Assembly (NCBI RefSeq): GCF_003018255.1
Contig: NZ_CP027440.1
DNA length: 64,000 nucleotides
Source of the DNA: Escherichia coli
Lineage (GTDB): Bacteria > Pseudomonadota > Gammaproteobacteria > Enterobacterales > Enterobacteriaceae
Direction: 5' to 3' (one strand)
Below the pieces are notes generated by a model. It was not told the origin of the DNA. It saw nothing but the letters and a program-made list of their open reading frames with translations, and searched no databases. This document shows positions 23,075-49,134 of this stretch, in pieces. Positions within the stretch are counted from its first letter, which is position 1, and the number at the start of each line of letters is the position of its first letter. Both the position numbers and the translations under genes were made by a program.

Positions 23075-23209
23075 CCTTTCTGGTTCCTTTTTTAACCATA
23101 TAGCAAGGGATCGCCAGCGATATTACACCAGACGGGTTCATTCTCGCCGTGGCTGTGACAAAATAGCGTCTTTATCAGAAAACGTCTTAGCCAACCGGTG
23201 GAGAAAGCA

Positions 23210-23995
23210 ATGCAGGATCGCAATTTTGATGATATTGCGGAAAAGTTTTCCCGTAACATTTACGGCACCACCAAAGGGCAGCTTCGACAGGCTATTCTGT
23301 GGCAGGATCTCGATCGCGTGCTGGCGGAAATGGGCCCGCAAAAACTGCGTGTGCTGGATGCTGGCGGTGGAGAAGGGCAGACCGCAATCAAAATGGCTGA
23401 GCGCGGGCATCAGGTCATTTTATGCGATCTTTCTGCGCAGATGATCGACCGCGCAAAACAGGCGGCAGAAGCAAAAGGTGTGAGCGACAACATGCAATTT
23501 ATACATTGCGCCGCTCAGGATGTTGCTTCACATTTGGAAACGCCCGTTGATCTGATATTGTTCCATGCGGTGCTCGAGTGGGTGGCCGATCCCCGCAGCG
23601 TATTACAGACCCTGTGGTCAGTGTTGCGTCCAGGCGGTGTGTTGTCGTTAATGTTCTACAATGCGCACGGCTTGCTGATGCATAACATGGTCGCCGGGAA
23701 TTTTGATTACGTGCAGGCGGGAATGCCGAAAAAGAAAAAACGGACGCTTTCGCCAGATTATCCACGCGACCCGGCGCAGGTTTATCTGTGGCTGGAAGAA
23801 GCTGGTTGGCAAATTATGGGTAAGACAGGCGTTCGCGTGTTTCATGATTATCTGCGCGAGAAGCACCAGCAGCGCGACTGCTATGAAGCATTACTTGAAT
23901 TAGAAACGCGTTATTGCCGTCAGGAACCGTATATTACCCTGGGGCGTTATATTCATGTCACCGCGCGCAAACCGCAGAGCAAGGATAAAGTATGA
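23210..23995 (+). CDS. cmoM: tRNA 5-carboxymethoxyuridine methyltransferase (SAM-dependent)
   Basis: ORF 23198..23995 begins at GTG; known N-terminus MQDRNFDD at ATG 23210; 261 aa; SAM-binding LDAGGGEG; first gene of the smtA-mukFEB operon. Confidence 0.92.
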
Positions 23996-25314
23996 GTGAA
24001 TTTTCCCAGACAGTCCCCGAACTGGTTGCCTGGGCCAGAAAAAATGACTTCTCCATCTCGCTGCCGGTAGACCGACTCTCTTTTCTGCTGGCGGTTGCCA
24101 CGCTGAACGGCGAGCGTCTGGATGGTGAGATGAGTGAAGGCGAGCTGGTGGATGCATTCCGCCATGTGAGTGATGCGTTTGAGCAAACCAGCGAAACCAT
24201 CGGCGTGCGCGCCAACAACGCGATCAACGACATGGTGCGTCAACGTCTGCTGAACCGCTTTACCAGCGAGCAGGCGGAAGGGAACGCAATTTACCGTCTG
24301 ACGCCGCTCGGCATCGGCATTACTGACTATTACATCCGTCAGCGCGAGTTTTCTACGCTGCGCCTTTCTATGCAGTTGTCGATTGTGGCGGGTGAGCTCA
24401 AACGCGCGGCAGATGCCGCCGAAGAGGGCGGTGATGAATTTCACTGGCACCGTAATGTTTATGCGCCACTGAAATATTCGGTAGCAGAAATTTTCGACAG
24501 TATCGACCTGACGCAACGTCTGATGGACGAACAGCAGCAGCAGGTGAAGGATGATATCGCCCAGTTGTTGAACAAAGACTGGCGGGCGGCGATTTCCAGC
24601 TGTGAATTGTTGCTTTCAGAAACTTCCGGAACGCTGCGTGAATTGCAGGATACGCTGGAAGCGGCAGGCGATAAATTGCAGGCTAATCTGTTGCGCATTC
24701 AGGATGCGACGATGACCCATGACGACCTGCATTTTGTCGATCGTCTGGTGTTCGATCTGCAGAGCAAACTCGACCGTATTATCAGTTGGGGCCAGCAATC
24801 CATAGACTTGTGGATTGGCTACGACCGCCACGTACACAAATTTATCCGTACTGCGATCGATATGGATAAAAACCGCGTCTTTGCTCAGCGGTTACGTCAG
24901 TCGGTACAAACCTATTTTGATGAGCCGTGGGCGCTAACTTATGCCAATGCCGATCGTCTGCTGGATATGCGTGACGAAGAGATGGTACTGCGCGATGAAG
25001 AAGTGACTGGGGAACTTCCTGAGGATCTGGAGTACGAAGAGTTTAACGAGATCCGCGAACAGCTGGCGGCGATCATCGAAGAACAACTTGCCGTGTACAA
25101 AACCAGACAAGTGCCGTTGGATCTTGGTCTGGTGGTACGCGAATATCTGTCACAGTATCCGCGTGCACGTCACTTTGACGTTGCGCGCATTGTTATTGAT
25201 CAGGCGGTACGTCTTGGCGTAGCGCAAGCAGATTTCACCGGACTGCCAGCGAAATGGCAGCCGATTAATGATTACGGAGCCAAGGTACAGGCGCATGTCA
25301 TCGACAAATATTGA
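23992..25314 (+). CDS. mukF: chromosome partition protein MukF (kleisin)
   Basis: 440-aa ORF; start overlaps the cmoM stop (ATGA); matches MukF. Confidence 0.97.
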
Positions 25315-25999
25315 ACAAGTGATGCCGGTTAAGCTGGCGCAGGCGCTGGCGAATCCGTTATTTCCGGCGCTGGATAGCGCCTTACGTTCAGGCCGTCATA
25401 TTGGCCTCGACGAACTGGATAATCATGCATTCCTGATGGATTTTCAGGAATATCTGGAAGAGTTTTACGCGCGTTATAACGTTGAGCTTATTCGTGCACC
25501 GGAAGGGTTCTTCTATCTACGCCCACGTTCCACCACGCTGATCCCTCGTTCCGTCTTGTCGGAACTGGATATGATGGTCGGGAAAATCCTCTGTTATCTC
25601 TATCTCAGCCCGGAACGGCTGGCGAATGAGGGGATTTTCACCCAGCAGGAACTGTACGACGAACTGCTCACCCTGGCCGATGAAGCGAAACTGCTGAAAC
25701 TGGTGAACAACCGTTCAACCGGTTCAGACGTTGACCGGCAGAAGTTGCAGGAGAAAGTACGTTCTTCGCTCAACCGTCTGCGTCGTTTGGGTATGGTGTG
25801 GTTTATGGGCCACGACAGCAGCAAGTTCCGCATTACCGAATCGGTGTTCCGCTTCGGAGCCGATGTGCGTGCTGGCGACGATCCCCGTGAAGCACAGCGT
25901 CGCCTGATTCGTGATGGCGAAGCAATGCCGATTGAAAATCATCTGCAACTCAACGATGAAACCGAAGAGAGTCAGCCAGATAGCGGAGAGGAAGAATAA
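25295..25999 (+). CDS. mukE: chromosome partition protein MukE
   Basis: ORF 25268..25999; start placed at ATG 25295 (MSSTNIEQV...) giving 234 aa; overlaps the mukF 3' end by 20 nt. Confidence 0.9.
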
Positions 26000-28900
26000 T
26001 GATTGAACGCGGTAAATTTCGCTCACTGACGCTGATTAACTGGAACGGCTTTTTTGCCCGAACTTTTGACCTTGACGAGCTGGTCACGACGCTTTCTGGC
26101 GGTAACGGGGCGGGTAAATCCACCACCATGGCAGCGTTCGTTACGGCGCTTATCCCCGACCTGACCCTGCTGCATTTCCGTAACACTACGGAAGCCGGGG
26201 CCACCAGCGGTTCGCGCGATAAAGGTCTGCACGGTAAGCTGAAAGCGGGTGTCTGTTATTCGATGCTCGACACCATTAACTCGCGCCACCAGCGTGTAGT
26301 GGTCGGTGTGCGTCTGCAACAGGTTGCCGGACGCGATCGTAAAGTGGATATCAAACCATTTGCCATTCAGGGCCTGCCGATGTCGGTGCAGCCGACACAA
26401 CTGGTGACCGAAACTCTGAACGAACGCCAGGCGCGCGTGCTGCCGCTTAACGAGCTGAAAGACAAGCTCGAGGCGATGGAAGGCGTGCAGTTTAAACAGT
26501 TCAACTCCATTACCGATTACCACTCGCTGATGTTCGATCTGGGCATCATCGCGCGTCGTCTGCGCTCAGCGTCTGACCGTAGTAAATTCTATCGTCTGAT
26601 CGAAGCCTCGCTGTATGGCGGGATCTCCAGCGCCATTACTCGTTCTCTGCGCGACTACCTGTTGCCGGAAAACAGTGGGGTGCGGAAAGCGTTCCAGGAC
26701 ATGGAAGCGGCGCTGCGTGAAAACCGCATGACGCTGGAAGCGATTCGTGTCACCCAGTCAGACCGTGACCTGTTTAAGCATCTGATCAGCGAAGCCACCA
26801 ACTACGTGGCGGCGGACTACATGCGTCACGCCAACGAGCGCCGTGTTCATCTCGATAAGGCCCTGGAGTTTCGTCGCGAGCTACATACTTCGCGTCAGCA
26901 ACTGGCGGCTGAGCAGTACAAACACGTCGACATGGCGCGAGAGCTGGCTGAGCACAACGGTGCCGAAGGCGATCTGGAAGCGGATTATCAGGCGGCCAGC
27001 GATCACCTGAACCTGGTGCAAACCGCACTGCGTCAGCAGGAGAAGATCGAACGCTACGAAGCGGATCTCGATGAGCTGCAGATCCGTCTGGAAGAGCAAA
27101 ACGAAGTGGTGGCAGAAGCCATCGAACGCCAGGAAGAGAACGAGGCTCGTGCGGAAGCTGCCGAACTGGAAGTGGACGAGCTGAAAAGCCAGCTTGCTGA
27201 CTACCAGCAGGCGCTGGACGTCCAGCAAACGCGCGCGATCCAGTATAACCAGGCGATTGCTGCGCTTAATCGTGCCAAAGAACTGTGCCATCTGCCGGAC
27301 TTAACCGCCGACAGCGCTGCCGAATGGCTGGAAACCTTCCAGGCGAAAGAGCTGGAAGCGACCGAAAAAATGCTCTCTCTTGAGCAGAAAATGAGCATGG
27401 CGCAAACCGCGCACAGCCAGTTTGAGCAGGCTTATCAGCTGGTGGTGGCAATCAACGGCCCGCTGGCGCGTAACGAGGCGTGGGATGTCGCTCGCGAACT
27501 ATTGCGCGAAGGGGTCGATCAGCGTCACCTGGCAGAGCAGGTTCAGCCGTTGCGGATGCGCTTAAGCGAACTGGAACAGCGTCTGCGTGAGCAGCAAGAA
27601 GCTGAGCGTCTGCTGGCAGATTTCTGCAAACGTCAGGGCAAGAATTTTGATATTGATGAACTGGAAGCTCTGCATCAGGAGCTGGAAGCACGCATTGCCT
27701 CTCTTTCCGATAGCGTCTCTAACGCCCGAGAAGAGCGGATGGCACTGCGCCAGGAACAGGAACAGCTGCAGTCTCGCATTCAGAGTTTGATGCAGCGTGC
27801 ACCGGTTTGGCTGGCAGCGCAAAACAGTCTCAACCAGTTGAGCGAACAGTGCGGCGAAGAGTTCACCTCCAGCCAGGACGTCACTGAATATCTGCAACAG
27901 TTGCTGGAGCGTGAGCGCGAAGCCATTGTTGAACGCGATGAAGTAGGCGCGCGCAAAAACGCCGTCGATGAAGAGATCGAACGTTTAAGCCAGCCAGGTG
28001 GTTCTGAAGACCAGCGTTTGAATGCGCTGGCGGAGCGTTTTGGCGGCGTGCTGCTGTCCGAAATTTATGACGACGTGAGTCTGGAAGATGCGCCGTACTT
28101 CTCGGCACTGTATGGCCCGTCACGCCACGCCATCGTGGTGCCAGATCTGTCACAGGTAACCGAACACCTGGAAGGCTTGACCGATTGCCCGGAAGATCTC
28201 TATCTGATCGAAGGGGATCCGCAGTCATTCGATGACAGCGTGTTCAGCGTTGATGAGCTGGAAAAAGCGGTAGTGGTGAAAATCGCCGATCGTCAGTGGC
28301 GTTACTCACGTTTTCCGGAAGTTCCGCTGTTTGGTCGTGCTGCGCGTGAAAGCCGTATTGAAAGCCTCCATGCCGAGCGTGAAGTGCTTTCCGAACGCTT
28401 CGCCACGCTCTCTTTTGATGTACAGAAAACCCAGCGTCTGCATCAGGCGTTCAGCCGCTTTATAGGTAGTCATCTGGCGGTGGCGTTTGAGTCTGATCCG
28501 GAAGCCGAAATCCGTCAACTGAACAGCCGTCGCGTCGAACTGGAGCGGGCGCTGAGTAATCATGAAAATGATAACCAGCAGCAGCGTATTCAATTTGAGC
28601 AGGCGAAAGAGGGCGTTACGGCGCTGAACCGCATTCTGCCGCGTCTCAACCTGTTGGCTGATGACAGCCTGGCGGATCGCGTCGATGAAATCCGCGAACG
28701 TCTGGATGAAGCCCAGGAAGCCGCGCGTTTTGTTCAGCAGTTTGGCAATCAACTGGCGAAACTGGAACCGATCGTTTCGGTATTGCAGAGCGACCCGGAA
28801 CAGTTCGAACAGTTAAAAGAAGATTACGCGTACTCTCAGCAGATGCAGCGCGATGCCCGTCAGCAGGCGTTTGCCCTGACGGAAGTGGTGCAGCGTCGTG

Positions 28901-30459
28901 CGCACTTTAGCTACTCTGACTCGGCAGAAATGCTGAGCGGTAACAGCGATCTCAACGAAAAACTGCGTGAACGTCTGGAACAGGCGGAAGCGGAGCGTAC
29001 CCGCGCGCGTGAAGCGTTGCGCGGACACGCAGCGCAGTTGAGTCAGTACAACCAGGTGCTGGCTTCGCTGAAAAGTTCTTACGACACCAAAAAAGAGCTA
29101 CTCAACGATCTGCAACGTGAATTGCAGGATATCGGCGTGCGTGCTGATAGCGGGGCAGAAGAGCGGGCGCGTATTCGCCGTGACGAGTTGCACGCGCAAC
29201 TGAGCAATAACCGTTCACGCCGCAATCAACTGGAAAAAGCGCTTACCTTCTGCGAAGCGGAGATGGACAACCTGACCCGCAAACTGCGCAAGCTGGAGCG
29301 TGATTACTTTGAGATGCGCGAGCAGGTAGTGACCGCGAAAGCGGGCTGGTGTGCAGTCATGCGCATGGTGAAAGATAACGGCGTTGAACGCCGCTTACAC
29401 CGTCGTGAGCTGGCTTATCTCTCCGCTGATGATTTGCGTTCCATGTCGGATAAGGCGTTAGGTGCGCTGCGTCTGGCGGTGGCGGATAACGAACATCTGC
29501 GCGACGTGCTGCGGATGTCGGAAGATCCAAAACGTCCGGAACGTAAAATTCAGTTCTTCGTGGCGGTTTATCAGCATCTGCGTGAACGTATTCGTCAGGA
29601 TATTATTCGTACCGATGATCCGGTGGAAGCTATCGAACAGATGGAGATCGAACTTAGCCGTCTGACCGAAGAGTTAACCTCCCGTGAACAGAAACTGGCG
29701 ATCAGTTCCCGCAGCGTGGCGAACATTATTCGCAAAACCATTCAGCGCGAACAGAACCGTATCCGTATGCTCAACCAGGGTTTGCAGAACGTATCGTTCG
29801 GTCAGGTAAACAGCGTACGTCTGAATGTGAACGTGCGTGAAACGCACGCCATGCTGCTGGATGTGCTCTCTGAACAGCACGAGCAGCATCAGGATCTGTT
29901 TAACAGCAACCGTCTGACCTTCTCGGAAGCGCTGGCGAAATTGTATCAGCGTCTTAATCCGCAGATTGATATGGGGCAGCGCACGCCGCAGACCATTGGC
30001 GAAGAACTGCTGGATTACCGCAACTATCTGGAAATGGAAGTTGAGGTTAACCGTGGTTCTGATGGCTGGCTGCGCGCAGAATCTGGCGCTCTGTCGACCG
30101 GTGAGGCGATTGGTACCGGTATGTCGATTCTGGTGATGGTGGTACAAAGCTGGGAAGATGAATCTCGCCGCCTGCGCGGTAAAGATATCTCTCCTTGCCG
30201 CCTGCTGTTCCTCGATGAAGCAGCGCGACTGGATGCTCGTTCTATCGCCACGCTGTTTGAATTGTGTGAACGTTTGCAAATGCAGCTCATCATCGCAGCG
30301 CCGGAAAATATCAGTCCGGAAAAAGGCACCACCTATAAACTGGTGCGTAAAGTCTTCCAGAATACCGAACACGTTCACGTCGTCGGCCTGCGAGGATTTG
30401 CGCCGCAACTCCCTGAAACGCTTCCAGGAAGTGACGAAGCGCCTTACCAAGCGAGTTAA
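25999..30459 (+). CDS. mukB: chromosome partition protein MukB (SMC-like condensin)
   Basis: 1486-aa ORF; N-terminal Walker [10 protein letters not shown], long coiled coils, C-terminal signature region; start overlaps the mukE stop (TAATG). Confidence 0.98.
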
Positions 30460-30490: not shown

Positions 30491-30502
30491 GTGCACAGAA
30501 AA

Positions 30503-30521
30503 CCCCCAGCTAGGCTGGGGG
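30503..30521 (+). repeat. IS200 left-end subterminal hairpin
   Basis: Perfect 8-bp GC stem cccccagc-tag-gctggggg. Confidence 0.6.
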
Positions 30522-30558
30522 TTCCGGAAAGCTTTCAGCTTTGAGCCAGTTATTAAAA

Positions 30559-30627
30559 CCCCTTTTGATTTGTTAAAACACCTTGCGGTCTGGCAACTGC
30601 AAGTGTCAAACAAGAAATCAAAAGGGG
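30559..30627 (+). promoter_or_regulatory. long-range stem sequestering the tnpA ribosome-binding site
   Basis: ccccttttgatt (30559-30570) is exactly complementary to aatcaaaagggg (30616-30627), which contains the Shine-Dalgarno immediately upstream of tnpA ATG 30634; matches the known translational occlusion in IS200. Confidence 0.55.
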
Positions 30628-43462: not shown

Positions 43463-43609
43463 GCCGGATGCGACGCTTGACGCGTCTTATCAGGCCTACA
43501 AGTCCGTTGAAAATGCTGGTTTTGTAGGCTGGATAAGGCGTTCACGCCGCATCCGGCAGCCGTGCCCAAATGCCTGATGCGACGCTTGACGCGTCTTATC
43601 AGGCCTACA
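43463..43609. repeat. REP elements forming a BIME (three copies in alternating orientation)
   Basis: gccggatgcgacgcttgacgcgtcttatcaggcctaca (43463-43500), inverted copy 43524-43560, near-identical copy 43571-43609; a partial fourth copy follows at 43631-43648; lies between convergent pepN and ssuB. Confidence 0.85.
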
Positions 43610-47887: not shown

Positions 47888-48123
47888 ACTCTCTCCTTAT
47901 AACCAATTGTTCTTGTTTTGTTAACATTGATAACAATTCGGTCAGTCTGACAGAGGGCGTCCGCGAGTCGAAATGATTTATCTGAGGAAGAAAAGCCAAA
48001 AAAAGCATAAAAAAAGCGCAATAAGAAAACGTTTGCTATTTATTGCCGCAGGTCAATTCCCTTTTGGTCCGAACTCGCACATAATACGCCCCCGGTTTGC
48101 ACACCGGGAATCCAGGAGAGTTC
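47888..48123. promoter_or_regulatory. divergent ssuE / pyrD promoter region
   Basis: 236-bp spacer between divergently transcribed ssuE and pyrD; individual operators not resolved by eye. Confidence 0.4.
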
Positions 48124-49134
48124 ATGTACTACCCCTTCGTTCGTAAAGCCCTTTTCCAGCTCGATCCAGAGCGCGCTCATGAGTTTACTTTTCAGCAATT
48201 ACGCCGTATTACCGGAACGCCGTTTGAAGCACTGGTGCGGCAGAAAGTGCCTGCGAAACCTGTTAACTGCATGGGCCTGACGTTTAAAAATCCGCTTGGT
48301 CTGGCAGCCGGTCTTGATAAAGACGGGGAGTGCATTGACGCGTTAGGCGCGATGGGATTTGGATCGATCGAGATCGGTACCGTCACGCCACGTCCCCAGC
48401 CAGGTAATGACAAGCCGCGTCTCTTTCGTCTGGTAGATGCCGAAGGTTTGATCAACCGTATGGGCTTTAATAATCTTGGCGTTGATAACCTCGTAGAGAA
48501 CGTAAAAAAAGCCCATTATGACGGCGTTCTGGGTATTAACATCGGCAAAAATAAAGATACGCCGGTGGAGCAGGGTAAAGATGACTATCTGATTTGTATG
48601 GAAAAAATCTATGCCTATGCGGGATATATCGCCATCAATATTTCATCGCCAAATACCCCAGGATTACGCACACTGCAATATGGCGAAGCGCTGGATGATC
48701 TCTTAACCGCGATTAAAAATAAGCAAAATGATTTGCAAGCGATGCACCATAAATATGTGCCGATCGCAGTGAAGATCGCGCCGGATCTTTCTGAAGAAGA
48801 ATTGATCCAGGTTGCCGATAGTTTAGTTCGCCATAATATTGATGGCGTGATTGCAACCAATACCACGCTCGATCGTTCTCTGGTTCAGGGAATGAAAAAT
48901 TGTGATCAAACCGGTGGCTTAAGTGGTCGTCCGCTTCAGTTAAAAAGCACAGAAATTATTCGCCGCTTGTCACAGGAATTAAACGGTCGCTTACCGATCA
49001 TCGGTGTTGGCGGCATTGATTCGGTTATCGCTGCGCGTGAAAAGATTGCTGCGGGGGCCTCACTGGTGCAAATTTATTCTGGTTTTATTTTTAAAGGTCC
49101 GCCGCTGATTAAAGAAATCGTTACCCATATCTAA
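48124..49134 (+). CDS. pyrD: dihydroorotate dehydrogenase (quinone)
   Basis: ORF 48097..49134; start moved to ATG 48124 ([10 protein letters not shown]...) preceded by CAGGAGAG; 336 aa. Confidence 0.96.

Follow-up and report, generated by a model that had tools for sequence, protein, structure and literature searches.

The window, that is, the whole stretch of 64,000 nucleotides of Escherichia coli DNA that was analysed, contains the genes of the MukBEF condensin in the order mukF-mukE-mukB, as seen in both the open reading frames and RefSeq, and the same order was observed in related loci. With cmoM placed ahead of them, they form the series cmoM-mukF-mukE-mukB, in which overlap is found at all three junctions (4, 20 and 1 nt, respectively). 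At the first of these, four nucleotides, ATGA, are common to the mukF start and the cmoM stop. The features of the region are as follows.

23992-25314 (+): mukF, encoding the kleisin, 440 aa; ORF list, RefSeq and Pfam KicB/MukF_M/MukF_C
25268-25270 (+): upstream in-frame ATG that would open a 243-aa reading (ORF 25268-25999); a by-product of the mukF codons AAT-GAT, judged not to be a start
25270-25326 (+): near-invariant nucleotide block by per-site entropies, corresponding to the mukE translation initiation region and partly dual-coding
25276-25286 (+): Shine-Dalgarno region GGAGCCAAGG, within the mukF codons G-A-K
25295-25297 (+): functional mukE start ATG, 20 nt inside mukF; invariant in 76/76 junctions, TetRP 20/14/11
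25295-25999 (+): mukE coding sequence, 234 aa, TAA stop at 25997-25999; RefSeq, PDB 3EUH, Pfam MukE (4.6e-127), K-12 TetRP, N-terminal peptide, Ribo-RET and INRI-seq
25312-25314 (+): mukF stop TGA, inside mukE codons 6-7; TGA in 76/76 Enterobacteriaceae
25322-25324 (+): Met10 codon ATG (225-aa reading), 7 nt past the mukF stop; the start in the 2006 annotation
25999-30459 (+): mukB, which begins on the last base of the mukE TAA (TAATG); its Shine-Dalgarno sequence GGAGAGGAAG lies in the mukE acidic tail

The product of mukE is assigned to the KITE subunit of MukBEF condensin by family match and operon context: it matches Pfam PF04288 with E = 4.6e-127 and 422 bits (cut-off 25), and the MksE family PF21980 with 173 bits. 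Overlap between mukE and mukF amounts to 47 nt if counted from ATG 25268 and to 20 nt from ATG 25295; the mukF TGA sits 17 nt downstream of the latter, and the two reading frames differ. The 801 nt around the mukF-mukE junction are 100% identical to those of strain 104 and have a match in 5425 of 5426 complete E. coli genomes. The same query also gave four matches on plasmid-labelled records and at least one genome with two copies, and a single genome among the 5426 was devoid of a match.

An earlier sequence-only reading of this DNA had described the mukE start as ambiguous, the open frame beginning at ATG 25268 (243 aa, 47-nt overlap) and the known protein corresponding to ATG 25295 (234 aa, 20-nt overlap). 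These coordinates and overlaps agree with the ORF list, and RefSeq/PGAP and PDB 3EUH/9GMB likewise have the known protein beginning at ATG 25295. A third in-frame ATG, at 25322, was absent from that reading. The term ambiguous is out of date, as experiments on the K-12 gene have been published.

The ribosome-binding signals ahead of the three ATGs were scored as duplex energies with the 3' end of 16S rRNA and compared with those of all 1088 ATGs in the window. The motif GGAG (25276-25279), 15 nt before ATG 25295, reached -5.8 kcal/mol. Closer to this ATG, AAGG (25283-25286) stands 8 nt before it with the spacer 25287-25294, and among duplexes that end 4-10 nt ahead of the ATG the strongest reached -3.9 kcal/mol. 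For comparison, values elsewhere in the operon were -5.2 kcal/mol for mukF and -6.6 kcal/mol for mukB. By the same measure, ATG 25268 gave -1.8 kcal/mol, which is about the median of the 1088 window ATGs, and ATG 25322 gave 0 kcal/mol, so that among the three candidates ATG 25295 alone is preceded by a Shine-Dalgarno sequence (GGAG/AAGG). Folding revealed no RNA structure masking the mukE start, with z = -1.45 for 25235-25345 (111 nt) and z = +1.01 for 25265-25330 (66 nt) against shuffled sequences. No internal promoter-like or terminator-like site was found in 24900-25700.

No Rfam family was matched at the mukF/mukE junction, the three matches in the window being located elsewhere. The Hfq-binding sRNA STnc490 gave a full-length match at 30501-30624 (+; 146 bits, E = 6e-30), about 40 nt past the mukB stop at 30459, which suggests an sRNA that is derived from the 3'-UTR or lies immediately downstream. 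A PyrD leader was found at 48056-48129 (+; 98 bits), as well as naRNA4/CssrE, a nucleoid-associated REP-derived RNA, at 43527-43605 (+; 82 bits).

The start of mukE has been mapped in K-12, from which the profiling data come and whose junction DNA is identical to that of the present strain. By TetRP, in which ribosomes are arrested with tetracycline (Nakahigashi et al. 2016, PMC4909307, Table S2 entry 10), the mukE ATG was placed 27 nt upstream of the start in the 2006 record U00096.2, where it equals the start in the 2014 record; the respective coordinates are 975622-976326 in 2014 vs 974872-975549 in 2006, the latter being 678 nt and 225 aa (PMC4909307, Table S3). In the three samples, the TetRP signal was 20.1, 14.1 and 10.6 at the 234-aa ATG vs 0, 0 and 0 at the 225-aa ATG (PMC4909307). 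The N'-peptide column for mukE reads 'new annotation' and not 'multiple' (PMC4909307, Table S2), and the COFRADIC N-terminal peptide starts at Ser2 of the 234-aa MukE with the methionine removed (PMC4909307, Table S4). In parallel, INRI-seq in vitro (Hör et al. 2022, PMC9825163, Table S2) yielded 5.8, 7.0, 0, 10.3 and 11.1 CPM at site 975622, that is, above the threshold of 5 in four of five replicates, and Ribo-RET, which uses retapamulin, detected the same site in vivo at 9.1 (PMC9825163). The INRI-seq peaks are called 12-18 nt inside the coding sequence, so a start 27 nt away is resolvable (PMC9825163), and Table S3 of that study lists no in-frame alternative mukE site, including one at +27. 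Moreover, the INRI-seq oligo confirms the annotated start ATG TCA TCG, its DNA being the same as that of the window (PMC9825163). The mukE signals are modest in TetRP (about 10-20 units) and in Ribo-RET (9 units).

[quoted passage not shown] Published TetRP, Ribo-RET and INRI-seq data all point to the equivalent of ATG 25295 (PMC4909307, PMC9825163), and the COFRADIC peptide is that of the 234-aa form, a peptide from another start being absent from the same data set (PMC4909307). A second N-terminal proteoform of MukE is not supported either, considering the null TetRP signal at the 225-aa start, the one peptide form and the lack of an INRI-seq alternative. The supplements of the TRAINSPOTTER N-terminomics and of the mBio 2024 riboproteogenomics studies contain no mukE entry, and a literature search found no paper on N-terminal sequencing of MukE or MukF.

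Another start within the same operon is also ambiguous, that of cmoM/smtA (23198-23212, +), which makes it the second such case besides mukE. Its ORF opens at GTG 23198, against a RefSeq start at about 23210, a difference of 12 nt. For smtA, INRI-seq Table S3 gives an in-frame GTG at -12, detected in two in-vitro replicates and not in vivo (PMC9825163).

Conservation was followed by scanning species-representative genomes, which provided 80 Enterobacteriaceae loci (91-99% identity), of which 76 junctions could be parsed and 73 complete mukF genes were used for codon entropy. ATG 25295, ATG 25322, the GGAG motif and the mukF TGA were invariant in all 76 junctions; AAGG was present in 73 and replaced by AGGG in three. 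The 14 mukF codons at 25270-25311 had a mean third-position entropy of 0.099, compared with a gene mean of 0.91 (sd 0.24), and formed the lowest window in mukF across the 73 genes. The second lowest consisted of the first 14 codons, 23992-24033 (entropy 0.123, 73 species), which constitute the initiation region overlapping the cmoM stop. As the near-invariant block spans about -25 to +31 around ATG 25295, it is centred on this ATG and not on ATG 25268 or ATG 25322.

Translation from ATG 25268 would yield a 243-aa MukE carrying the extension MITEPRYRR and overlapping mukF by 47 nt, a reading to which we give practically no credence. It has on its side that the open frame contains no ATG before 25268 and that 25270-25294 is invariant, as dual coding predicts. 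However, this ATG lacks a Shine-Dalgarno sequence (-1.8 kcal/mol) and is ACG in 16 of the 76 species through the mukF-synonymous change AAT>AAC, which excludes the 243-aa form as the conserved product; in the more distant locus L088, the upstream ATG is located at -21. The recorded N-terminal peptide has Ser2 of the 234-aa MukE as its first residue, and the 243-aa form is absent from the databases and structures checked (RefSeq, PDB). Non-conserved, without a Shine-Dalgarno sequence and contradicted by the peptide, it was rejected.

Every substitution found within the overlap is silent in mukF and replaces a residue of MukE (S3L, T4I, N5S), and just downstream MukE codons 8-9 vary non-synonymously (Q/K/H/N and V/M/A/F). 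The N-terminal tail of MukE tolerates change, and the invariance of the junction is mainly that of the MukF C-terminus and the ribosome-binding site. Since the overlap substitutions are silent in one frame and replacing in the other, conservation alone is no proof that the tail is translated; it is the peptide and the profiling data that carry this point.

Beyond Enterobacteriaceae, junctions were taken singly from cluster representatives. Equivalents of both ATG 25295 and ATG 25322 are kept in Yersinia and Erwinia, with the 20-nt overlap. In L088, whose MukE is 61% identical, the start ATG, the 20-nt overlap and AAGG are retained, position 10 is proline, and the N-terminal region has the same length, the conserved FPALD motif being reached after 27 residues; its upstream ATG is placed differently, at the -21 position given above. 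In the Vibrio-like L083, mukF and mukE are 34 nt apart, mukE is directly preceded by an in-frame stop, and the MukE tail, 11 residues long, has no internal methionine. In other lineages, the two genes are either separated (by 85 or 7 nt) or overlapping (by 8 or 32 nt). A tail of about 5-15 residues before the first helix is thus shared by the MukE family, and Met10 is not. Some homologues among the relatives P0127, P0129, P0130, P0133 and P0136 reach 380-570 aa; the extra length in P0127 and P0129 is made of a C-terminal extension that is very long, low in complexity and strongly acidic, the acidic tail of the E. coli protein being short.

These comparisons bear on a start at ATG 25322, from which MukE, or a minor isoform of it, of 225 aa would be made by re-initiation 7 nt past the mukF TGA, a process that does not need a Shine-Dalgarno sequence. 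This ATG is invariant in the 76 Enterobacteriaceae junctions as well as in Yersinia and Erwinia, its distance from the mukF stop fits the geometry of termination-reinitiation, and codons 8-9 just upstream vary as a spacer would. The 225-aa protein, which was the 2006 annotation, is structurally competent (PDB 3RPU, 7V8P). On the contrary, TetRP was 0/0/0 at this site, the longer N-terminal peptide is the sole one recorded, INRI-seq shows no site at +27 and the duplex energy is 0 kcal/mol. In addition, Met10 is replaced by proline in L088 and is absent from farther MukE proteins, in which the tail (about 5-15 residues) has no internal start. We consider this start very unlikely.

A further point in its favour comes from recoded strains. 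A 2026 recoding study reported that changes of gene coordinates left 'forbidden' codons in the essential mukE of Syn61 (PMC13287592). Codons 2-3 of the 234-aa mukE are TCA TCG, two serine codons left unassigned in Syn61Δ3, and they are not serine codons in the mukF frame. We infer that the forbidden mukE codons of Syn61 are these TCA/TCG at codons 2-3 and that the genome design was based on an annotation with the shorter start. Syn61 thus keeps unassigned codons at the beginning of the 234-aa form, and Syn61Δ3 is alive. A minor 225-aa isoform produced by re-initiation at ATG 25322, possibly the main functional product in Syn61Δ3-like recoded strains, is a thought that we entertain with little expectation. 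If it existed, the in-vitro assay could not show it and its signal would be below the reach of TetRP; it would explain why an essential gene tolerates forbidden codons and why Met10 is strictly conserved in the lineages examined that have the E. coli-type junction, L088 with its 20-nt overlap and Pro10 set apart. The TetRP values of 0/0/0 at the 225-aa ATG speak against Met10 as a back-up start in wild-type cells.

The history of the annotation follows the same line. In RefSeq/PGAP, two strains, one identical and the other 97% identical, have mukE annotated as 705 nt with a start that corresponds to 25295. Both lengths are found in structures, the 234-aa MukE in PDB 3EUH and 9GMB and the 225-aa MukE, beginning MPVKLAQ, in 3RPU and 7V8P. 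The 225-aa start thus appears in the 2006 annotation, in Pfam and in some PDB entries, and therefore the real historical ambiguity is between 234 and 225 aa, not between 243 and 234 aa. The first position of the Pfam model PF04288 is exactly Met10 of the 234-aa MukE, apparently because the family seed still carries the old 225-aa annotation. For annotation, the consequence was that the 225-aa start lingered in older records. The true N-terminus adds a 9-residue, substitution-tolerant tail to MukE and leaves the understanding of the MukBEF complex unchanged; the mukE start inside mukF is already known, an ordinary and resolved annotation detail.

Taken together, we are highly confident that MukE is translated from ATG 25295 as a 234-aa protein with its Shine-Dalgarno sequence embedded in mukF. 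The initiator methionine is removed, leaving Ser2 as the mature N-terminus, and ATG 25268 and ATG 25322 are unused as starts. The start and its Shine-Dalgarno sequence (GGAG…AAGG, 25276-25286) both lie within the last 13 mukF codons. This stretch of mukF has three roles, encoding the MukF C-terminus, providing the mukE ribosome-binding site and encoding the MukE N-terminal tail, and this triple role accounts for its near-invariance across Enterobacteriaceae. In vivo, ribosomes terminating mukF translation 17 nt downstream of the start probably contribute to mukE initiation, either by re-initiating locally or by preventing the site from folding.

How far mukE translation is coupled to that of mukF is a separate matter. 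The sequence-only reading had taken the overlap to imply coupling, and the overlap was its whole basis for doing so. The mukE initiation region has its own Shine-Dalgarno sequence and no masking structure, and it initiates in vitro with only 30 nt of mukF on the transcript (PMC9825163). The complex has a 4:4:2 B:E:F stoichiometry (PMC8602292), and MukE is accordingly needed at twice the amount of MukF. Ribo-RET peaks were 75 for mukF, 9 for mukE and 17 for mukB, although peak heights under antibiotic arrest are not quantitative, and the INRI-seq signal per transcript was about 14-fold lower for mukE than for mukF (PMC9825163). The isolated mukE site therefore looks weak, yet MukE is required 2:1 over MukF, which is suggestive of coupling, as is the overlap at all three junctions of the operon. 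With regard to geometry, a ribosome terminating at 25312-25314 would have its trailing edge on the mukE ATG and the Shine-Dalgarno sequence just behind; by analogy with established termination-reinitiation behaviour, this would make local recapture geometrically plausible. Given that intensities under antibiotic arrest are non-quantitative, coupling of mukE to mukF translation is rated as plausible, with roughly even odds. A literature search found no paper on translational coupling in mukFEB.

The 20-nt overlap could instead be the result of genome compaction only, mukE being initiated de novo at its own Shine-Dalgarno sequence, independently of mukF translation; to this we attach a somewhat smaller likelihood, a little short of an even chance. 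The region taken by itself (30 nt upstream plus 153 nt) supports initiation in vitro in the absence of mukF translation and is unstructured, and the architecture of the junction is not conserved outside Enterobacterales, where gaps of 85, 34 and 7 nt and overlaps of 8 and 32 nt occur. Compaction alone fits less well with the weakness of the isolated site relative to mukF, seen per transcript in INRI-seq in vitro and also in Ribo-RET in vivo, when MukE is needed 2:1 over MukF. Nor does it fit well with the overlap at all junctions of the operon or with the exact 20-nt geometry, which is fixed across Enterobacterales.

Known coupled junctions of the ATGA/TAATG type likewise have a stop near a start and join genes for subunits of one complex. 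The neighbouring cmoM/mukF and mukE/mukB junctions are of this classic kind, with 4-nt and 1-nt overlaps. Unlike them, the mukE start is located 17 nt upstream of the mukF stop and has its own Shine-Dalgarno sequence, and re-initiation there would need backward movement of the ribosome. The closest known system is mukE of E. coli K-12 itself (b0923, ECK0914, P22524, 3EUH chain C), the same gene in the same operon context cmoM-mukF-mukE-mukB and with the same junction DNA. All 234 residues of K-12 MukE (3EUH) match those of the protein encoded in the window save one, an N/S difference near the C-terminus, and the K-12 start in U00096.3/NC_000913.3, 975622, is the same start as 25295 here. Finally, the revision from U00096.2 (2006) to U00096.3 (2014) brought a set of start re-annotations validated by TetRP, and mukE is such a case, its start having been moved by -27 nt to an ATG.
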